Positions 17,175 to 30,400 are shown, numbered from the stretch's first letter. The stretch: 64,000 nt of DNA from a virus (IMGVR_UViG_3300031555_004710:32001-96000); one strand, 5' to 3'. Translations and numbers: made by a program. Notes: generated by a model not told the origin, from the letters alone.

Positions 17175-17212
17175 AAAAAGAGAAGACGGATAATCGTCTT
17201 CTCTTTATTTTT
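17175..17212. terminator. Bidirectional terminator
   Basis: AAAGAGAAGACG/CGTCTTCTCTTT between convergent genes. Confidence 0.8.
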
Positions 17213-19889
17213 ATTCAGAATCAAGTTCTTCATCATATAAATCATCTATATCGCTATCTTCGATTTCATCCTCTTCTTTTTGCTGTAATAAAAGAAGCTC
17301 TTGCTGTCGTAGAAGTTCCTCTTTCTCAGCTTTTGATTTACGTCCTCTCTTCTTAGGTGCGGTATTTGAGGAGTCTGAAGAAGTTATAGTTCGTGTAGAA
17401 GGAGTTTTAAGTTTATCTATGATGGATGATACATGTCCTTTAGTTGTTGCTTTTAACTGCTCTTTCAATTCATCAGTAAGTTCATATTGTTTATTTAACT
17501 CGGAATCATTGAAAATTTCATCCCAGCACATATCACATTTTTCGCCACGATATGATTCAATTGTAATAAAAGAATTCATCTTCTTATTAAATAAATCAAA
17601 TAACTCTTGATACATTTTTCTATTTCTAGGATAGTCATAAATAACATATTCTCCAAAATGTAGTGCACAGACTTTTGTGTCATCATGAATTTCAACTCTT
17701 CCTTCTGGAATAGGAGAGAAATACAAACGTAATCCCATAGTCTTTAACTTGGCTGCAAGAATATCAGCATTTGCATTTGTGTAAGTATCTTTTACTTTAA
17801 GTTTTTGAATCTTTAAAGGATTTCCATCGGCAGAAATAATTCTATCCAATGATTTTCTTCCTAAAGCAGAAGAACGCATAAATATGTTATATTCAGCTAA
17901 ATCCGAACCATTTATAGATGCCATTAAATTATAGATTTCAGAAAGTCTTACAGGAGTTCTAGCATAAGAACTTCTATTAGTTTTCTTCGCAATATCTTTT
18001 GCAGGAAGATTACTTCTATTTACTCTGAATGTACTTCTTGCAGAAAAGTTCTTATTTGAATTCTGTTTAAGAATTAAGATATACTGATAACCTATAACAC
18101 CTTGTCTCATAGTTTTTCTCTGTTGCATTCCGAATAAATCAACATATATATCTACAGGTTTTATATCTGGAAATGCATCATATAATCTAACTACATCATC
18201 AAATAATAACGGTTTATGAGGTGCTCTTACAATATAAAAACCATTTTCTTCAATATCTCTAATGAATGCTTCTTTATATTTTGGAGCCATGAATCTTATA
18301 GTTACACCATTAACCATCTTAGTTTCTTCATAACTATTGTAAAGAGTTTTAAAGAATGATGATTGGTCAGCATTTACACAATCTAAGAACTTAAATAGAA
18401 TTTCTTCTTTCTGTTTAAGAGTTTTAGCATTCTTAATCTTATGCTGAACCTGTTCAGCAATAAAATTTGTTTCAACTTCTACTAACTGTCCTGGATTAAG
18501 ACGACGAATTGCTCCACTAGAATTGGATAATACATCTGCATATACTCTTTTTCCATCTTGAATATAGTATGGCATACGTTCATCATCAACTATTGATATT
18601 TTAGATTTAAGAATTCTTCTATCATCTTCAGATAAAGTTCCATCATCTACCAAATCAATAATAGAATCTTCCAGAGAATTTGTATTATCTTCCATTAGTC
18701 TAGATATAACACCTTTATTACCATAACGTCCAGTTATCTTAGAACCTAATTCCAAACCAACGATAGATTTTACCTTAAATTCAAGTACAATATGTGCAAA
18801 TGCTTTATCTTTATTTTTCCATTTATACTCATTATCATTGTATCTTAAATATCTTGATCTAAGATAGCTAACATTGTTAGTATAATTACTTCCAGAGTTT
18901 TTAATGATATTACATGCTTCTAAAATTTCCCTTGCATATCTACAATTATCATCATAATATCTTTTAAGCTGACGATTAAATAAATTGCTTGGAAATTCTT
19001 CATCTCCATTATAATAAACATTTATGTCATAGACTATAGAATCTTTGGATGTGTAATAATCGGTATCAGTATCCATAAGTTCTCTCATATGTTCTTTCTG
19101 AAAATCATATAATAAATGTGCTTTATTAATTCTTCTAGTTGCACATATAAGTGAATCTTTTACTGGTTGCCCTATTTCGGGAAAAGGAATATAATTTTCA
19201 TTATCACCATAAAGATTTAATAAAACATCATTATCATTTACTGGTACTTGAACTTTATCTACTTCGACAGATTTTACATCATCTGCCCAACCTTTTCTTA
19301 TAACGATAGCATCTTCTATCGTATCAGTAGATGTTGAGTAAAATACTCTGGCATTCTTTCCATATCTATAATTCATATGGTCATCATATGCTGTAGATTT
19401 ATAAAGAATTTTATCGGTTATTTTATCACCAACTTCTAACGTATCCATATAAGAAGTATTATAAACATAACCAAATTTTTCGGTAAGATTTTCAGCAATT
19501 GGTTTTTCGATTATATCATAAGTATCAGTTTTCTTATTATATAATACTAAAGTATAAATCTGATGTTTTATTGTATTTGGGTCACTTAACATTTCATCAG
19601 TGAAACTAAATTTTGGAATGATTTGTTTAACTTCCCAAGTACCCTCAAGTTTCTTGAATGAGCGATTGTATTTACCAACAGAATTTTCAAACCCTGTTTG
19701 TAGATGTGGTACATCTGGAGATAATAAGGTCAATGATTGTTTTATATGCTGATTCCACATATATGCTCTACTAGAGTCGATAGTTGACCATGTTAATGAT
19801 GATGGTCCGAATAAACGAAACATCTCATCTCCACCATATTTATTATCTAATTCTTCTAATGTGTTCTTTAAATGTATATCAACAGGCAT
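17211..19889 (-). CDS. Non-virion multisubunit RNA polymerase beta subunit, C-terminal part (phiKZ gp71-73-like)
   Basis: SSRAYM..QHIKQ, EDAIVI, GSKITGRYGNKGVIS, DVLSNSSGAIRRLNPGQLVE; virion versus non-virion assignment inferred from split pattern and size. Confidence 0.85.
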   Translation of the reverse strand: MPVDIHLKNTLEELDNKYGGDEMFRLFGPSSLTWSTIDSSRAYMWNQHIKQSLTLLSPDVPHLQTGFENSVGKYNRSFKKLEGTWEVKQIIPKFSFTDEMLSDPNTIKHQIYTLVLYNKKTDTYDIIEKPIAENLTEKFGYVYNTSYMDTLEVGDKITDKILYKSTAYDDHMNYRYGKNARVFYSTSTDTIEDAIVIRKGWADDVKSVEVDKVQVPVNDNDVLLNLYGDNENYIPFPEIGQPVKDSLICATRRINKAHLLYDFQKEHMRELMDTDTDYYTSKDSIVYDINVYYNGDEEFPSNLFNRQLKRYYDDNCRYAREILEACNIIKNSGSNYTNNVSYLRSRYLRYNDNEYKWKNKDKAFAHIVLEFKVKSIVGLELGSKITGRYGNKGVISRLMEDNTNSLEDSIIDLVDDGTLSEDDRRILKSKISIVDDERMPYYIQDGKRVYADVLSNSSGAIRRLNPGQLVEVETNFIAEQVQHKIKNAKTLKQKEEILFKFLDCVNADQSSFFKTLYNSYEETKMVNGVTIRFMAPKYKEAFIRDIEENGFYIVRAPHKPLLFDDVVRLYDAFPDIKPVDIYVDLFGMQQRKTMRQGVIGYQYILILKQNSNKNFSARSTFRVNRSNLPAKDIAKKTNRSSYARTPVRLSEIYNLMASINGSDLAEYNIFMRSSALGRKSLDRIISADGNPLKIQKLKVKDTYTNANADILAAKLKTMGLRLYFSPIPEGRVEIHDDTKVCALHFGEYVIYDYPRNRKMYQELFDLFNKKMNSFITIESYRGEKCDMCWDEIFNDSELNKQYELTDELKEQLKATTKGHVSSIIDKLKTPSTRTITSSDSSNTAPKKRGRKSKAEKEELLRQQELLLLQQKEEDEIEDSDIDDLYDEELDSE

Positions 19890-20359: not shown

Positions 20360-21565
20360 TTAAATTTCGTTCAAATCGATATCACCATATGCTAATCTTT
20401 CAGTATCTTCCTCTGAAGCATCTACTTTCTTAGCTCCTAAAAGACCTTCATAATATGGTTTAAGTACTCTAAGAACCCCTTCTCTAAAATCTTTATCAAC
20501 GCTCATCAGAGATATGAATTCTTTACGATTAAATTTTCGCTCATCAAAGCCTTTTATAGATAAGTATGGATTTCTTCCTTGTATTAACCCTAAGGAATTT
20601 GCAAATTCGTATATGGAATATATTGGATCAAATCCCTTTGCACTATTAAATGTGACTGGGAAACTTGTACCAACTACATTTGTCTTAGTTTTTGCAAGAC
20701 TAATATCACACTTATATCCAACAAAACCATCATCATCTATTGTATATGCAGCGGATTTCTTTGTCTTGATTCTAAAATAAGTATTTGAATAGTATTGAGC
20801 AACTGAACCTCTTGGAAGGGTTTCTGTCTGAGGATTTATCATAAGAAGACCCTGTGGAGGTGGAGCATATGGATTCATAACAGTATTCGGTCGTATATGA
20901 TTGATTACAATAAATATACAATTATACTTCCATGCTCTATCAAGAACGTTTGTATAGAATCTAGTAACATCTTTACTAGCTCTCATTTGGTCAATATTAT
21001 TTCCTAAATCTTCAACATTATATTCTTTGCTATTAAATGATGGTAATGAATCTATAATATATACAGTTGGAACATATTGCCAAAATGTTCTTCCACCCAT
21101 CTTAACTTCATACATAAACTGTTTGCCACCAGCTTCTTTAGCATCACATATCTTTGTAAAATTATCAAGAACGTCTTCTATAGAAGTATGTGATTTTATT
21201 AATCTAATTCTCGGTTCTTCATAATCCGCTTCTGCCAATGTTATGACTCTCTGTCTAGTAGAAGTCTTTTCACAGTCAATTATAAACATCATTCCATCTT
21301 CAAATCGTTTTACAATATTCCATCCTATTTGTACTGCTAGAGTTGTCTTTCCAGTACCTGTTGGACCGATAATTGAAACCATGGAACCACCTTGAATACC
21401 TATCACTGGAACTAATATCTTATTGCCATCTGCATCTACAGTTTCATTCCAAAAACCATTAGCATAATCTAATACAGTTATACCAGTTGGATAGCTAGTG
21501 GTATTATCATCTGATTTAAGAATACCTTTCTTGTCATTTGCTTCTAAATCTTGCCATAATGACAT
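20360..21565 (-). CDS. RecA/UvsX-like recombinase
   Basis: YPTGITVLD, Walker A GPTGTGKTT, IDCE, YIIDSL, IVINHIR, KTK. Confidence 0.85.
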   Translation of the reverse strand: MSLWQDLEANDKKGILKSDDNTTSYPTGITVLDYANGFWNETVDADGNKILVPVIGIQGGSMVSIIGPTGTGKTTLAVQIGWNIVKRFEDGMMFIIDCEKTSTRQRVITLAEADYEEPRIRLIKSHTSIEDVLDNFTKICDAKEAGGKQFMYEVKMGGRTFWQYVPTVYIIDSLPSFNSKEYNVEDLGNNIDQMRASKDVTRFYTNVLDRAWKYNCIFIVINHIRPNTVMNPYAPPPQGLLMINPQTETLPRGSVAQYYSNTYFRIKTKKSAAYTIDDDGFVGYKCDISLAKTKTNVVGTSFPVTFNSAKGFDPIYSIYEFANSLGLIQGRNPYLSIKGFDERKFNRKEFISLMSVDKDFREGVLRVLKPYYEGLLGAKKVDASEEDTERLAYGDIDLNEI

Positions 21566-21925: not shown

Positions 21926-22024
21926 CTCTGTTCGCCTCCTATATTAAAATATTTTTTTAATGAAGAATTCTTTTATCATTCTTCATTATAATAATATATA
22001 ATCGTATATTTGAATTTATACGAT

Positions 22025-22599: not shown

Positions 22600-23724
22600 T
22601 TAATAATAATTTCTATTATTTTTTCCACGGTTTCCGTTTCTATTTCTTCCACCATTCTTTTTACTACGTTTATCATAGTCATTATCAAACATTCCAGAAT
22701 CCATCATCATTTTATCCAATGAAGGTTTGCTATCTTCATTATTATATCGACGATTATCGTTATAAGAATGGAATTTATTTGGTTTTCTATTATTATTTTT
22801 TCTCATAGAAATCTCTTTACGAATTCCGTTTTTATTAGTGGTAACCATCATATTACCTTCAATAGTAACAGGTTTTTTATTGTTATTATTTGAAGGTCTT
22901 TTTGTATTTACTTGTTTTTTAGATCCTTCATATGTTACCCATAGTGGCTGACCTGGTTCAGCATTCATCATTACAGGTTTATTGATAACGTCATAGTCCC
23001 AGCTACTAATATAATCTCCATTAGGAGATATTATTCTTAAAGTAAAATTTTCGTAATTAGTTTTCTTCTCATTGGTTTCTTGATCATCAAAAAGTGCATA
23101 TGATTCCAACTCAATCTTAATTTCATTGGTATGATATTTATGATCATCTTTGAATAAATTCTTATTAATTTCTATTACTAAATATAATACTTTTCTGTAT
23201 TTTCTATTATTGTAAAAGAATGGTTTTATTGAAGTTGCTATAAGTCCTTTATAGATACGATATCTAGGATCTTCCGGTATAGGTTTAATCATACCATTAA
23301 ACGGAAATGCAACTACGTATAGATTAGCTCTATCATCACCCTGTTCATGACAACGCACTTCCACAGTTGGATGATTTCTATTACCTGAGTTAATATATAA
23401 AGACATCGGTAATTCGAAATTTACTTCTCTACTATCATTTGGTTTAGAAATAAATTCATCAATATTTTTAAGTGGGGCAGATATACGAATAATCTCACGA
23501 TTAATAGGTTTTAATACATCATTTCTAGATTTTATTCTAGAATTTGAATCGTTTTTATTTTTGTTAAAATCACGACGTTGATTATAGTTATTATGTCGTT
23601 GATCATTTTCATATTGCTGCAGTTTATTTGATGATGCAACTTTAATTTTAGTATAATTTTTACCTTTTTCTTCTGTCACAATTGTTGAATAGGACATCAA
23701 TTCTTCATTTACAATGTTAAGCAT
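22600..23724 (-). CDS. Hypothetical protein with N/R/K-rich disordered termini
   Basis: ORF track; late motif 23786-23797. Confidence 0.6.
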   Translation of the reverse strand: MLNIVNEELMSYSTIVTEEKGKNYTKIKVASSNKLQQYENDQRHNNYNQRRDFNKNKNDSNSRIKSRNDVLKPINREIIRISAPLKNIDEFISKPNDSREVNFELPMSLYINSGNRNHPTVEVRCHEQGDDRANLYVVAFPFNGMIKPIPEDPRYRIYKGLIATSIKPFFYNNRKYRKVLYLVIEINKNLFKDDHKYHTNEIKIELESYALFDDQETNEKKTNYENFTLRIISPNGDYISSWDYDVINKPVMMNAEPGQPLWVTYEGSKKQVNTKRPSNNNNKKPVTIEGNMMVTTNKNGIRKEISMRKNNNRKPNKFHSYNDNRRYNNEDSKPSLDKMMMDSGMFDNDYDKRSKKNGGRNRNGNRGKNNRNYY

Positions 23725-23860: not shown

Positions 23861-25033
23861 TTATTCATCATCGTCTTCATCATTATCTGAATCAAAATCA
23901 AATGATGGTAATTCGGTATCATCCTCATCCTCATCACGATCAATTTTTATTGATTCAGGTTTATGATTATTATCTTTTTCTTCAACGTTATCATTTTTCA
24001 CATAACGTTCTTGAAATGATTCTATCTGACGAACTCCAGATTTTGTAATCTTTGAAATTTTGTCTGCATAGCGATTGATTGTATCTGTAAGATTATTGAA
24101 ATTTGAAGGTATGCTAAGCATATCAACTCTTAGTCTAGGACCATTTCCATTACGGAATATTCTATCAATTCTCTTAATATATAATTCAATCATCTGTTTA
24201 CGCACATTTTCAGGAGCTCTATCAAGTTCATTCATTGCAAAGTTTGTAAGAGAATCCCATACTTCGCGTACATTATCAAAGTATTCTGTATCACGATATG
24301 CATCAATTCTACGAACACCTTCGAGAAGAATTGATATTGCTACAGAAGATGTCATCTCAGAACCAAAGAATGTTCCAAAATATGATCCCCATTTAATAGA
24401 AGACACATCTTCGATTCCAGAATTACCTGTCCACTTATAAATTTCCTGAAGTAACTGATTTGAGTACATTCCAATTTTATATTTAGGAATATATTTTCTA
24501 TCAGGAATCATGAAATAGGTACTAAATACCATTTCTTTAGGAAGATTACTTTTCTTACAAATTTCTTTTACATTTCCTTTTGCTTTATCTTTAAGAGATT
24601 CCATTAACTCTGAAATATATTCACTATATTTCTCACTTTTCTCTTTATAGCTTTTTACTTCTTTGGAGGAGATATCTCCATTTTTATATCCTTCTGTAAT
24701 TTCTTTATTTGCATTATTTGAAGCTTCTATTGCCTGCTCTACAACCAAGAAGGCTATAGTACATGCACTCTGATCAAAATCTTCAGAAGTTTTACTTTTT
24801 ATGAATTTAATAGCTCTTTTCATAACAGCAGGTGTTGCTAAAGAGCCGAAAATTTTATTAACCATCGGTTTAGTCATTGGCTGTGAATTTGCATTTTCAC
24901 CAATTCCATAAAACCATTCTCTAAAATCGTCTGAGCAGAAAATTGTTTCTAAAACCTTTCCCTGCTTTTTATTAGATAAATCCGAAAATTTACCTAATTT
25001 CTTAACTAGTTTATCATAGTCAAACATGTTCAA
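23861..25033 (-). CDS. Hypothetical helical protein with acidic tail
   Basis: ORF track; AAGGAG RBS. Confidence 0.6.
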   Translation of the reverse strand: MNMFDYDKLVKKLGKFSDLSNKKQGKVLETIFCSDDFREWFYGIGENANSQPMTKPMVNKIFGSLATPAVMKRAIKFIKSKTSEDFDQSACTIAFLVVEQAIEASNNANKEITEGYKNGDISSKEVKSYKEKSEKYSEYISELMESLKDKAKGNVKEICKKSNLPKEMVFSTYFMIPDRKYIPKYKIGMYSNQLLQEIYKWTGNSGIEDVSSIKWGSYFGTFFGSEMTSSVAISILLEGVRRIDAYRDTEYFDNVREVWDSLTNFAMNELDRAPENVRKQMIELYIKRIDRIFRNGNGPRLRVDMLSIPSNFNNLTDTINRYADKISKITKSGVRQIESFQERYVKNDNVEEKDNNHKPESIKIDRDEDEDDTELPSFDFDSDNDEDDDE

Positions 25034-25161
25034 AAACTCCTTTTCTATTTTAATTTAAATTCGTTATTCTTATAGTAGTTATTTTGGTAATGATAACTTT
25101 TTACTTATTCATAGTAACAATATATGAGTAAAATTATTATCTTAAGTATTGATTAAAGGGA

Positions 25162-25203
25162 AAATTATGAATAGGTGAAAATATTTTCACCTATTCATAA
25201 TTT
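25162..25203. terminator. Perfect 42-bp palindrome after the tubulin gene
   Basis: AAATTATGAATAGGTGAAAAT|ATTTTCACCTATTCATAATTT. Confidence 0.75.
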
Positions 25204-25207
25204 ATAA

Positions 25208-26389
25208 CTATAAATTATCAAAGAAGTTTGCTAATTTATTAGTCTTTTCTTCTTCATCTGATCTGTCATTTCCTTTGAGGAAATCAGGTATTTCATCTTT
25301 CACATCAGAACTTCTAAGTTCAGTAAGATTAAATTTCTTTTGCTTATTAGCTCTTTCAGTATATTCCGCAACAATTTCATTCATCTTAGCAATTCTTGTA
25401 TAAGGAGTTGTCTGACCAGAAAGAATTATAATCATCTGTCCAGTTGCACCTTGAGTAATTGCATAGTTTTCGAAAATTGTTAAAGGTCTTCCAATATACC
25501 CTATAAGCTCTTCATAATCTGACGCTTTAGATGAATCTGTCATATCATCTGGCATATTTATAATAGCTGCCATCTGTTTTACAATTCCATCTCTCATAAT
25601 TTCTGTAGCAGGAGATTGTTTAATTTTCTTAATCATCATCTGCTGCATAGATTCTTTGTCAAGTTGACTCTGAGATACTTTATTTAAATTGTATACAGAT
25701 AAGTATCCAGGTTCAGCAATTACTGTACGCATATCATTTTCATCTATCATACCATAAGAAGATTTATTTAAATATTTTCCTCTAATGGCATTGATACTAT
25801 CAATGATAAATAGTTGTACATCTCTATATGCCTCATCATTAGGGATTCCTTGATAATAATCTAAATCAGCTAATATATAAGGTACATTTAATTCGGTAAT
25901 TTCCGAAAGACATCCAATGGAATTTTCCTGAGCTTTAACAGAATCTGTTAATCTTGGAAGTATTCCACAATAGATGATAATTTTTGAAGGATATTGCTGT
26001 TTAAGTAATGCTACTAATGACGGACAAACACCAGAGCCTGTTCCGCCAGCTGTAGAACCAGAAACTATAATAACGTCACTTCTTTCACACATATCTGTAA
26101 AATAAGGAACCTGAGTCATAAGCTCCATTCCATTATCCTTCATAAATGAAAGAGCAACTTTACGATTTTTTCCAGCACCTCTAGCTTCTTTACCGATAAT
26201 GAATGATTTAATATTCTTATCGACTACAGAGTTATTGAGGTCTGCATAAGATGAATTGATTGCAAAAACATCAATATCATGTTTAATAGCTTCATTAAGA
26301 AGCTGGTTTCCTGCATTTCCGACACCAATTAGGGATATCTGCAGAGCTGCACGATTTTCTAACATTTCGCTCACCTTTTCGAATTCCAT
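25208..26389 (-). CDS. Tubulin/FtsZ-family GTPase (PhuZ/TubZ-like)
   Basis: IGVGNAGNQ, GAGK, signature AGGTGSG, T7-loop-like MIDENDM. Confidence 0.9.
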   Translation of the reverse strand: MEFEKVSEMLENRAALQISLIGVGNAGNQLLNEAIKHDIDVFAINSSYADLNNSVVDKNIKSFIIGKEARGAGKNRKVALSFMKDNGMELMTQVPYFTDMCERSDVIIVSGSTAGGTGSGVCPSLVALLKQQYPSKIIIYCGILPRLTDSVKAQENSIGCLSEITELNVPYILADLDYYQGIPNDEAYRDVQLFIIDSINAIRGKYLNKSSYGMIDENDMRTVIAEPGYLSVYNLNKVSQSQLDKESMQQMMIKKIKQSPATEIMRDGIVKQMAAIINMPDDMTDSSKASDYEELIGYIGRPLTIFENYAITQGATGQMIIILSGQTTPYTRIAKMNEIVAEYTERANKQKKFNLTELRSSDVKDEIPDFLKGNDRSDEEEKTNKLANFFDNL

Positions 26390-26598
26390 AATTTTTAGCC
26401 TCCTAAATATATTTTATTATATGATTAACTCATTAACTGAGTAACCCTCTAGATTAGTAGAAGACAAAACTATATTATTTGTATTGATTTATATATTTTG
26501 TCCATTTGTATTAAATAGAAACTACGTGTTAGATAAAATATTTATATTATAGGAGGCTAAGCCTATTCGTAAATACTCTAACACGTAGCTTTATTTCA
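26390..26598 (-). promoter_or_regulatory. Structured 5' leader of the tubulin gene with anti-RBS
   Basis: 12-bp stem 26522-26533/26577-26588; 26550-26560 is the exact complement of the RBS at 26395-26405. Confidence 0.7.
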
Positions 26599-26637
26599 TT
26601 AAAATAATACACTATTAAATTAATATTTTATATAATT

Positions 26638-27375
26638 TTATACTCTTGGACCAGGTATCTTATTGATATCTCCAATAAGATTAGTTTGAATTCCTTGCAT
26701 AATATAATATGTAGAAAAAGTATTTAATGCAGTTTTATTATAAGGATCTTTTAAATCAAGATCTAATAAAGATACATATCCATTCTTTGCAATATCATTA
26801 TACATCTCTAGTTTAGCTTTTCGATTATCTGCACGAGGTCCCATAAATTCCTGCAGGGCGTTCATTGCTTTGATAGCTGCTAAGCTGTATGTTTCCATAT
26901 CTGAGTTAATAGCATTTCTATCTTCTCCAGTAACCTGGTTAGTAAGAACTGAACGTTTATTAATTTCAGTAGATCCTGCAGATTTTTTAAGAAGAAATTG
27001 CTGCATTCTCTTTTCATGAATATACCCTACAGGAACTGGATACGGAGTAACAATTACATTTTCAGGATCATTTGTAAGATATGGTAATGCAACTCTTTCT
27101 AATAATGGTACATTCATGTATTTAGCACATTTTTCTATATTTTCTATCGATAAATCTCTTTCATATTCCACAATTTCCAAATAGAAATTTTTCTTTGGGT
27201 CTTTAAAGAAATCCCTAATATATTTATCAAACTGCTGATCAGACATCTTCTCAAATTTTTCTTGATATATCTTTGCGTTTTGTCCCGTTGGGTCAAGAAG
27301 ATTCATTACTTTAAGAAGATGGTCCATAAATTTTTTACGTTTATCTTGTATAGATGCCATTATAAATTTCACCAC
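26638..27375 (-). CDS. Virion RNA polymerase beta subunit, small C-terminal fragment (phiKZ gp149-like)
   Basis: PVPVGYIH.KR.Q, RSVLTNQVTG, SDMETYSL, LQEFMGPRADN correspond to RpoB C-terminal motifs; late promoter 27405-27416. Confidence 0.8.
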   Translation of the reverse strand: MVKFIMASIQDKRKKFMDHLLKVMNLLDPTGQNAKIYQEKFEKMSDQQFDKYIRDFFKDPKKNFYLEIVEYERDLSIENIEKCAKYMNVPLLERVALPYLTNDPENVIVTPYPVPVGYIHEKRMQQFLLKKSAGSTEINKRSVLTNQVTGEDRNAINSDMETYSLAAIKAMNALQEFMGPRADNRKAKLEMYNDIAKNGYVSLLDLDLKDPYNKTALNTFSTYYIMQGIQTNLIGDINKIPGPRV

Positions 27376-27482
27376 CTTTAAATTGGTCAGTTTAGTTTAA
27401 GTATTAGATTTTTGTTAAAATGAGTAATTTATATTCTAAAAATAAAGAAGATAGAACCACATAGTTCTATCTTCTAATTAAA

Positions 27483-30400
27483 TTATAGTAAACCCGCTTC
27501 AGTAAATTGTTTATTATAAAAATCAATTGCAGATTTAACTCCTGGTAGATGAGCTGTGAAATTATCATATATACTTTGACACGTTTCAACGGCTTCAACA
27601 ACACCGAGGTCAAATACAACACCAACTTCAGGTTTCCATAAAACTTTGACATCGTATTCGTGATTATTTATCGAATACTTTTCTTTAATTATAGTATTTT
27701 CACGTGTTTTATCAACTTTAATCATTCTTCCAAGACCAAATTTATTCCAGTTTGGATTTTCTTCATCAGATAAATATATATTAGAAAAATATTTATCAGC
27801 AGGAATTTCAGAAGGTAATATAGAAAGACCAGTAGCTTTACAGCAAGGCATTCCTATATAGTCTATCATCTGTACAGTTGTACCATAATCTGAAATTGCT
27901 AAACATTTACCATTACCATAACAAATTGATACCAAGTTAGTAATGTATTCATATATTACATCTTCATTCCAATTAATACCATCAATAGAGTATACAAATG
28001 AATTAGAATCATATGAGATTGCTATAAATTTATCATTTGTGTATATAACTCTCCACATTCTAATATACTCGTCCAATATATCTCCAGTCCATTCGATACC
28101 ATCGATAGAATAATAATACATATCAGTATTACCATCATTACCTAATGCCACAAATTTACCATTACCATAGCATACAGATAATAATGATGTATTTGTATCA
28201 GGAGAAGCATCAAAAACTACCCAATCAATACCATTAACGGAATATGCTATATTATTACAAACTCCTACAACTACGAATTTACCATCACCGTAACAAATTG
28301 ACTTCCAACCAGTTGTCCAGGTGGAACTATCTATATCGCAATATGTCCAGTTAATACCGTCAGTAGAATACGTATATACGGTGTCATATTCTGATATGGC
28401 TACGAATTTACCATCTCCATAACATACTGAACATAATGACGCTAGATCTGTGTTTAAATAAACTTTCCAATTAATGCCATCGGATGAATAAACTATCGGG
28501 GCTCCCCCACCAGCAACCAATTCTCCAACAGCTACGAATTTACCATCTCCATAACATACTGAATACAGCCTAATATCAATCACATCAGATGGAATATTTG
28601 CGAAATTCCAGATTAATCCATCGGATGAATATGCGATACTCATACAAGGAGTCTCATTATCATAACCGATTGCTATATACTTACCATCACCATAACATAT
28701 ATCAATCCATTCAATATTAGTAGTACCAATGGAACCTTCAATCCAACGTTCAATATAAGCACATTTATCAGCTTCACAATTACACTTGTGAGTTTGAACC
28801 GATGTTGATTTAGTTTTTGCATCAGCTGCAAGTATAACATCTAATTCAGCATGAGGAGTACTCATAGGATACTCTTCGGTACCACCGCCATCATTTGATA
28901 AGGTTTTTTGAATACCAACGTATATATCGCTATCACCAATTGCATCTATTTGATATTCTGATGGGGTATACACATAGTGCGTAACATTTTTAGCAATTTC
29001 AAGATCATCCTTTGATACAGCATCAGAAATATTATAACCAGAGAATGTATTCGGAGTATTTAATATTTCTGAATAAATAGTAGAAGATAAATTGCTAGAA
29101 AAATCTTTTAAACCTTCATTATAATTAGGTGTACCAAATTTACTATTATCAACTATTTTCTTCCAAGTTGCCGCACCAGATTCATCCTCTACATATAATG
29201 TATTACCATTATGATATTTAGAATCCAATAAATCAGCAACTTCTTCAGAAGACGCCAATATATCAAACGAGGAAATTTCATATGCTCTCTCACTTACTTC
29301 AGTAGAGAATTTATCATATGGAAATATTACTATTCCCAATTTAGCAAATACATAATTATTTGATATTGCTATAAATTTTGCATTGCCATATGCAATAGAT
29401 GTCCATTCACCAAATACATCAATAGCATCTTCGATCCAATTTATACCATCGATTGAATATGCGTATATATTTGTACCATAGTCAAGGGCAATGAATTTTC
29501 CATTTCCATGACATACAGTAATCCAATATCTATTACTATTAGCTACTGGTACTTCTACCCATGTAATACCAGTTGTAGAATATGCAATAGTTCCATTCAT
29601 ACCAACTACTACAAATTTTCCATTTCCATAGCATATGTTAGTCCATGAATTATTCGAAATACTGATATTTCCAACCATCCAACTAAGACCATCAGACGAA
29701 TAAGCGAATGTATTTCCAATACCTGTAATAGCCACAAATTTTTCATTTCCATAGCATATAGATATCCAATAATCTGAAGAAATTCCTATGTTTATCTCTG
29801 CCCATATAAGTCCATCGGCAGAATAAGCAAATGTATTCGAATTATATGCAACTGCGATATATTTTCCATTTCCATAACATACAGAATACCAATTTCTTGA
29901 TACATGTGCCATAAGGACTTCAGTCCAAATAATACCATCTGTAGAATATGCTAAAATACTATCGCTAGATATTGCTATAAATTTTCCATTTCCATAGCAG
30001 ATAGTTTTCCAAATTCTATGGGTAGTGCCTACTACTGATATTTTCCAAGAGATACCATCGATCGAATAATAGAATGCGTTAACTCCCATATTATTGAAAG
30101 GTATCGCAATAAATTTATCGTTACCATAACAAATTGATTGCCATTGCATAACGCTCATTGGCATCGATGTCCACTTATCCACTGAACCTGCAATATTATC
30201 AACTGTTACATTTACTCTATTATCTAGATGATGAGTATGCTGCCCAGGTGCTTTTGAATCCCATCCGGCAATCATTTCTGGATTAATATGTGTTGATACA
30301 TGTTTATCAACTTTATCATATGATCCTGAAATAATTTGCTCTGATATAGAATAATCTAAACCATCGCTTATTCTATTTTTTAAAATATTTAATATTTCAG

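Follow-up and report, generated by a model that had tools for sequence, protein, structure and literature searches.

A 248-nt gap on the minus strand (26390-26637) precedes a tubulin gene in the window, the whole stretch of 64,000 nt of viral DNA that was analysed here, and both genes flanking this gap point in the same direction. An earlier note had read the gap as a two-state translational switch for the phage tubulin. The question raised by this locus is whether the leader controls translation of the tubulin gene and, if so, by which fold. Assembly of PhuZ- and TubZ-type phage tubulins is concentration-dependent, which makes control of tubulin dosage plausible. A literature search yielded no report of an element that controls translation of a PhuZ/TubZ-type phage tubulin gene.

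Genome setting and predicted transcript

The source virus record is 236,671 bp in length and has a G+C content of about 30%. Animal faecal and gut metagenomes carry sequence identical to the window, and contigs from four DNA runs correspond to it base for base across the covered parts; RNA runs were not among the listed carriers. The tubulin gene (25208-26389, minus strand) encodes a member of the Tubulin/FtsZ family of 393 aa. Its product matches Pfam Tubulin PF00091 (E = 1.1e-15, 58.8 bits with a cut-off of 33), which bears out the identity claimed for this gene in the earlier note, and the PHROG 'tubulin PhuZ' (E = 2.3e-11). The tubulin GTPase signature GGGTGS/T is present, and residues G115, G116, T117, G118 and S119 are invariant in 20 homologues. 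A protein search of deposited phages with this tubulin returned only the tubulins of c-st, a Clostridium phage, and D-1873, both at 25% identity. The two large ORFs located directly downstream of the tubulin gene (23861-25027 and 22600-23724) gave zero Pfam or PHROG matches, and a UvsX-like recombinase gene (20360-21565, minus strand; PHROG 97, E = 4.7e-39) follows a few genes further downstream.

The upstream neighbour (26638-27360, minus strand) encodes 240 aa and was identified as a fragment of a split multisubunit RNA polymerase beta subunit (PHROG 3233, E = 5.7e-42). It has a late motif AACA-N6-TA of its own, ending 52 nt before its ATG; judged from this motif, the late promoter suggests a subunit of the virion RNA polymerase. 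An ORF of 892 aa (17211-19889, minus strand) matches RNA_pol_Rpb2_6, and a Pfam search for Rpb1_2 (beta-prime) found none. A canonical intrinsic terminator with a 13-bp stem, a 4-nt loop and a T-run lies at 27446-27475 (minus strand), between a gene of 1218 aa and the late promoter of the polymerase fragment. It exemplifies the ordinary terminators of this phage, with which the first hairpin of the tubulin leader (described below) contrasts.

The promoter classes of AR9, a jumbo phage of Bacillus, have been mapped experimentally. Its early promoter is AAATATATATTAT-(6N)-G+1 with the core TATATTAT-N6-G(+1) (Lavysh et al. 2017, PMC5312081), its late promoter is AACA-(6N)-TA/G, and some of its genes have early and late promoters together (PMC5312081). 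The genome studied here resembles that of AR9 in featuring the early motif TATATTAT-N6-G(+1), the late motif AACA-N6-TA and split multisubunit RNA polymerase genes (PMC5312081). It differs in that start sites are predicted here and mapped in AR9, and in that neither an anti-RBS leader nor a tubulin leader is described for that phage (PMC5312081). The present phage also differs in its origin from animal faecal and gut metagenomes, and a DNA search with the window found no match among deposited phages. Both promoter classes appear to be in use throughout the genome, with examples in the window at 21984, 1046, 5504 and 36200 (all minus strand). The late motif AACA-N6-TA is found 45-55 nt before the start codons of dozens of genes. 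About 35 strong copies of T(A/G)TATTAT-N6-G with a same-strand start codon within 220 nt occur genome-wide, and several of them are followed by an RBS straight after the predicted +1.

One of these early motifs, TGTATTAT-N6-G, precedes the tubulin gene at 26597-26611 (minus strand). In full it reads TGTATTAT-TTTAAT-G (26611 to 26597) and deviates from the AR9 core by one mismatch (G for A), which is common to many copies in the genome. Based on this match, transcription of the tubulin gene is predicted to start at G 26597, giving a leader of 208 nt. The early-type motif near 26603 and the leader of about 200 nt that had been proposed before are therefore in line with the AR9 consensus and its roughly 35 genomic copies. 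Of the 35 strong early leaders, which mostly measure 11-66 nt, the predicted tubulin leader is the longest, and it is the only one to contain CCUCC. The early motif is kept in the tubulin leaders of 10 relatives. Since the motif with its G(+1) lies upstream of the anti-RBS described below (37 nt from predicted start to anti-RBS in the window; the same order in 7/7 leaders), the predicted leader of about 208 nt would hold both the anti-RBS and the RBS on one transcript.

Complementarity, hairpins and conservation in the leader

The tubulin RBS is an extended Shine-Dalgarno sequence, UAGGAGGCUAA (26395-26405, minus strand), 7 nt before the ATG at 26389. The segment UUAGCCUCCUA (26550-26560, minus strand) is its exact 11-nt complement, here called the anti-RBS; this central observation of the earlier note was confirmed on the minus strand. 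The exact 11-bp helix has a calculated energy of -17.1 kcal/mol, and within the window the exact 11-mer complementarity is confined to these two sites. In a duplex scan, in which the RBS region of each of 213 genes was compared to the 250 nt upstream of that gene, the top rank (1/213) went to the tubulin gene with -21.7 kcal/mol (mean -9.9, sd 2.6). Several of the runners-up appear to resemble the reverse complement of the RBS of a divergent neighbour, for example through a GUACCUCCUUAUUUUAC match. Such a neighbour cannot explain the complementarity of the tubulin leader, since the upstream gene is co-directional. The complementarity between the RBS and its upstream region is clearly non-random.

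The earlier note had extended the pairing by a second match of 9 nt (26541-26533 with 26417-26409). This match is indeed exact, but it consists of A and U only and is not conserved in relatives, so that it is best treated as chance on the basis of the sequence comparison. A reading of TAGGAGGCUAA as an RBS on the plus strand was rejected: frames of only 3-7 codons with an ATT or ATG start follow, and there is no ORF.

Three hairpins were recognised in the leader. HP1 (26520-26590, minus strand) is the 5'-terminal one and consists of a 14-bp outer stem (26590-26577 / 26533-26520) that encloses a 43-nt loop and is followed by the U-rich tail UUUCUAUUU. The 12-bp stem noted before (26588-26577 / 26533-26522) is exact and reaches 14 bp by way of a G-U and an A-U pair. 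HP1 is part of the MFE fold, for which a z-score of -4.2 was obtained over the entire intergenic region. In every leader with an early motif, HP1 starts at positions +1 to +8. The loop of HP1 contains a small apical hairpin (26549-26566, minus strand), in which AUAGG (26566-26562) pairs with CCUAU (26553-26549) and which displays CUUAGCCU in an 8-nt loop. The earlier note had placed the anti-RBS inside the long hairpin; it is enclosed by HP1, but it is situated in the 43-nt loop and outside the stem. The middle hairpin HP2 (26461-26503, minus strand) is variable and was predicted by folding, with the arms GGACAAAAUAUAU... / ...AUAUAGUUUUGUC. HP3 (26423-26445, minus strand) is conserved; its core ACUCA / UGAGU, located some 25 nt before the RBS, was derived from predicted folds and alignment.

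Two further readings of the 5'-terminal region were examined and discarded. A 5'-terminal hairpin is not a general feature of early transcripts, as z-scores below -2 were obtained for only 2/35 of them. The HP1 loop contains a sigma-70-like arrangement, TTTACG-16-TATAAT, whose spacer is the anti-RBS; the hexamers are not conserved in L002, L003 and L010. Sigma-70-like sites are found 16 times in the region, compared to 15.9 in shuffled sequences, which is no excess.

Homologues of the tubulin abound on metagenomic contigs 230-280 kb long. The comparison set comprised 13 distinct loci with identical gene order. Seven of these (the window, L002, L019, L003, L011/12, L010 and L013; tubulin identity 84-89%) share the full architecture, which from 5' to 3' features the early motif, HP1, the apical module with AGCCU(C/U)CUAU, variable middle hairpins, HP3 and the RBS UAGGAGGCUA. 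A contiguous anti-RBS:RBS helix of 11-12 bp with -15.3 to -18.2 kcal/mol can be drawn for all seven leaders, and their best leader-to-RBS duplexes range from -16.5 to -21.7 kcal/mol. For relatives lacking the block, the corresponding values are -1.2 to -11.0 kcal/mol in 5/6 cases; the 12-nt leader of the sixth, L017, is too short to score. The overall identity of the leaders is about 47%, and the two most conserved blocks of 10 columns are the anti-RBS and the RBS. In the anti-RBS core AGCCU(C/U)CUAU, 9/10 columns are invariant across 7 relatives, compared to a background pairwise identity of 0.48, and the RBS block UAGGAGGCUA is invariant in 10/10 columns across 8 relatives. The sole substitution in the anti-RBS is a C to U change (L002, L019) that retains pairing as G-U, which accords more readily with an RNA helix than with a DNA site or a reading on the opposite strand. 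A look at anti-RBS/RBS covariation in relatives, suggested as a check in the earlier note, showed conserved pairing with this single one-sided change and no two-sided change. Covariation is not decisive here, because the ribosome constrains the Shine-Dalgarno side.

The hairpins differ in their conservation. The HP1 stem shows two-sided changes in 10/14 pairs across 7 relatives, and 91% of cells are paired, compared to 30-53% in slid controls. In the apical stem, 94% of cells are paired and there are zero two-sided changes. HP2 is present in 5/7 of the leaders with an anti-RBS and missing from L003 and L011, and HP3 occurs in L013 as the compensatory variant UCCCA / UGGGA. An additional perfect hairpin was observed between HP1 and HP2 in L002 and L019, and in L013 the polymerase fragment is separated from the tubulin leader by an additional ORF of 49 aa (L013:1121-1270). 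The tubulin leader has the appearance of a mosaic of hairpin cassettes.

The apical module is missing in three lineages of the same clade, namely L072 (89% tubulin identity), L004 (81%) and L014/L015 (78-79%). L072 (89%) and L014 (79%) have the identical extended RBS without the anti-RBS, whereas L004 and L015 lack the anti-RBS and also differ in the RBS (GGAGGU). In L015 and L004 the HP1 stem is recognisably homologous and is closed by a loop of 7-8 nt. The tubulin tree forms a polytomy at the relevant clade, so that gains and losses of the anti-RBS cannot be counted; its distribution is patchy. Since close relatives (78-89% tubulin identity) lack it, some of them with the RBS kept, the anti-RBS module is, as far as this sequence comparison goes, dispensable, an optional element of fine-tuning and not an essential one.

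A search of IMG/VR with the single tubulin protein gave no match, and a search with a protein alignment gave 52 tubulin loci with identities of at most 55%. None of these 52 loci has a comparable anti-RBS. When IMG/VR was scanned for the pattern of an anti-RBS combined with an RBS, at three spacings, only three unrelated chance matches were returned. The best case among the 52 loci is L020/L021 (IMG/VR, 55% tubulin identity), where a segment containing CCUUCU about 104 nt before the start codon is complementary to the RBS region (-17.5 kcal/mol). It directly follows the stop codon of the polymerase gene and lies upstream of an early-type motif, so that it would be present on read-through transcripts only.

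Topology, energetics and proposed mechanism

The earlier note had assumed that RBS-open and RBS-closed folds exclude each other. This was not borne out: the anti-RBS lies in the HP1 loop, and the HP1 stem stays intact when both complementary segments are held single-stranded. HP1 need not open for pairing with the RBS, because the anti-RBS is part of the loop and not of the stem. According to these folding models, the anti-RBS:RBS helix and HP1 can coexist in the form of a pseudoknot. In nested folds the RBS is mostly unpaired, and the probability of anti-RBS:RBS pairing is close to 0. When both states were folded, the nested RBS-closed fold with HP1 melted was 1.7-14.8 kcal/mol worse than the MFE fold.

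Opening both segments costs 6.4-10.3 kcal/mol in the seven leaders. The sum of opening cost and helix energy is -7.9 to -8.9 kcal/mol in 7/7 leaders with HP1 intact, a value that excludes the penalty for pseudoknot closure. Replacing the duplex initiation of 4.1 kcal by a penalty of the Dirks-Pierce type of 9.6 kcal would leave about -2.5 to -3.5 kcal/mol as a rough estimate. The only local competitor of the anti-RBS:RBS helix is the 5-bp apical stem AUAGG/CCUAU (about -1 to -6 kcal/mol), which covers half of the anti-RBS and exposes UUAGCCU in a loop of 7-8 nt. This layout appears suited to loop-first nucleation on AGGCUAA. The distance from loop to RBS varies from 100 to 200 nt across relatives.

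Based on these results we propose, with a probability of roughly 0.55, that the tubulin leader is a cis translational attenuator acting via a loop-to-RBS pseudoknot in the early mRNA; the effect on translation is a prediction. The virion-type RNA polymerase would initiate at about 26597 from the AR9-type early promoter and produce a structured leader of 208 nt, in which HP1 comes first. At the tip of HP1, a small hairpin would present UUAGCCU in its loop and hold CCUAU in its short stem. The anti-RBS loop could then nucleate on AGGCUAA within the Shine-Dalgarno sequence of the tubulin gene, which lies 100-200 nt further downstream, and the helix would zip to 11-12 bp, ousting the weak apical stem of 5 bp. 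As the outer stem of HP1 would remain closed, a loop-to-RBS pseudoknot would result. If formed in vivo, this helix would span the whole Shine-Dalgarno sequence and exceed the Shine-Dalgarno:16S pairing in length, which should lower access of the 30S subunit and damp the tubulin output from a strong early mRNA. Such damping may be constitutive or conditional.

Alternative readings and related systems

HP1 is probably also the terminator of the upstream late RNA polymerase gene, a 5' stabiliser, or both. A stricter reading holds that it is mainly one of these, that the loop block serves otherwise (e.g. as a protein site) and that translation is not controlled at all. Several observations are in accordance with it. 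HP1 comes immediately after the upstream gene, at the place where a terminator of that gene is to be expected, with the U-rich tail next to it, and predicted intrinsic terminators close the operons of AR9 (PMC5312081). L007 and L017 have a plain terminator-like hairpin at the corresponding position, and L004, L015 and L072 retain HP1 without the anti-RBS. Furthermore, the HP1 stem covaries, whereas the RBS helix is without two-sided change. However, in 10/10 leaders with an early motif HP1 comes after the early promoter, which means that the tubulin mRNA must read through. A consensus terminator scan made no call despite the 14-bp stem, because the loop has 43 nt instead of 3-8 and the U-tract in the tail UUUCUAUUU is interrupted; the tails in relatives range from U5 (L002) to poor (L003). 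The reading also fails to account for the exact complementarity between the one invariant block of the loop and the RBS of the same gene. We regard it as unlikely, while noting that the roles of terminator and attenuator are compatible and not exclusive. A riboswitch-like switch, in which HP1 would exclude the RBS-closed fold and a ligand, tubulin or an sRNA would flip the state, is less probable still. The three-part layout would suit such a switch, AUAGG in the apical stem has the sequence of the 5' portion of the RBS and could serve as an anti-anti-RBS, and the closed state may come close to energetic balance once the rough penalty estimate is included. Against this, HP1 does not compete with an anti-RBS located in its loop, and the nested alternative is 1.7-14.8 kcal/mol worse. 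Middle hairpins differ in presence between relatives, and the loop outside the anti-RBS is poorly conserved and variable in length, unlike an aptamer. An Rfam check of 25000-28000 (E <= 10) gave zero matches in the leader (26390-26640), with weak chance matches in coding sequence only. As the leader shows neither an Rfam match nor, apart from the anti-RBS, a conserved unpaired core, the ligand, protein or sRNA trigger postulated earlier is not supported.

Action in trans has to be considered as well, since the order of promoter, hairpin and U-rich tail is that of an attenuator-derived sRNA. Termination at the U-rich tail might free HP1 in the form of a small RNA, about 80-90 nt long, which would act through the anti-RBS in its loop on the tubulin mRNA and two other genes with GGAGGCUAAA. 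A U5 tract immediately follows HP1 in L002 and L019, and GGAGGCUAAA is common to only 3/215 genes, with C after GGAGG in only 4/57 RBSs. On the other hand, the U-tracts are weak in L003, L011 and L010, the two other GGAGGCUAAA genes are without informative annotation, and read-through makes pairing in cis kinetically favoured; we give this reading a very slim chance. A combination is slightly easier to accept but likewise very doubtful: partial termination at HP1 would yield a small RNA of about 85 nt next to the read-through tubulin mRNA, and the loop would titrate the rare GGAGGCUAA RBSs in cis and in trans. If true, this would constitute a small phage-encoded translational regulon set by the efficiency of termination. 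The two genes concerned lie outside the window and encode 514 aa (G000:C1:186926-188470, plus strand, equal to L076:227-1771) and 109 aa (G000:C1:217282-217611, minus strand, equal to L077:183-512). Their RBSs would pair in trans with the apical loop of the tubulin leader, and family searches with the two genes gave no informative match. Finally, a choice between promoters as in T4 e/soc could lock the early or read-through mRNA by the anti-RBS, while a second, internal promoter gives an unlocked mRNA later. AR9 has genes with early and late promoters (PMC5312081), a weak AACA-N6-TT is located in the 3' arm of HP1 in the window, and GACAA-N-TATAA recurs in HP2 of five relatives. However, the region 26406-26549 holds neither a canonical late motif (AACA-N6-TA/G) nor a second early motif, relatives show no conserved candidate there, L002 and L003 lack the AACA of HP1, and the GACAA block is a hairpin arm that is missing from L003 and L011. 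This makes a promoter-choice lock highly improbable.

The proposed attenuator can be compared to several known systems. Sequestration of the RBS is a textbook class of mechanism. In the E. coli rpoS leader, in fold-back inhibition of IS10 and in RNA thermometers, an upstream anti-SD sequesters the Shine-Dalgarno sequence in cis and limits binding of the 30S subunit. The tubulin leader is similar in that an upstream segment of the same mRNA can pair across the Shine-Dalgarno sequence. In contrast to these cases, its anti-SD is situated in the apical loop of a 5'-terminal hairpin at a distance of 100-200 nt, so that a pseudoknot and not a simple hairpin would arise, and neither an activator sRNA nor temperature dependence nor an outside promoter is evident. 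In the repZ/repA mRNAs of IncI-alpha and IncB plasmids, the loop of an upstream hairpin pairs about 100 nt downstream near the RBS; this pseudoknot activates translation and is blocked by an antisense RNA. The topology, an upstream loop reaching a distal translation-start region, is shared. The plasmid pseudoknot, however, forms beside the RBS, whereas the helix proposed here would lie over the Shine-Dalgarno sequence and should repress, with no antisense RNA known for this leader.

Among phages, the transcripts of T4 e (lysozyme), soc and I-TevI that originate from upstream promoters hide the RBS, which is freed late by a second promoter inside the hairpin. Hiding of a phage RBS through pairing with upstream RNA is the common element; the defining second promoter was searched for in the tubulin leader and not found. 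The preQ1-II and SAM-II/V riboswitches also pull the Shine-Dalgarno sequence into a pseudoknot with a hairpin loop. They differ from the tubulin leader, which has no Rfam match, no conserved ligand core and a loop-to-RBS distance varying from 100 to 200 nt.

The tubulin leader is a new RNA motif in a well-known control class, and its occurrence is so far limited to one small clade of AR9-like jumbo phages from the gut, which are uncultured. It does not amount to a new principle; what is gained is a further instance of the class and a useful handle on such phages. Should the pairing function in the proposed way, the leader would represent a small, new RNA motif for regulation in cis, one that Rfam does not contain, and a concrete, testable case of the suggestion made for AR9 that translation in jumbo phages with RNA polymerases of their own is tuned by long 5' UTRs. 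Natural controls are available in the form of close relatives with the same RBS, from which the apical module is precisely missing.

AR9-type motifs at fixed distances from start codons would further permit a near-complete classification of early and late genes in an uncultured phage from sequence alone. In L007-L009 (70% tubulin identity), a motif of the late type, AACA-N6-TAAT, extends over the end of the upstream gene, and the transcript start that it predicts would coincide with the first base of a plain hairpin. The class of promoter in front of the tubulin gene thus seems to differ between lineages, while a 5'-terminal hairpin is kept.
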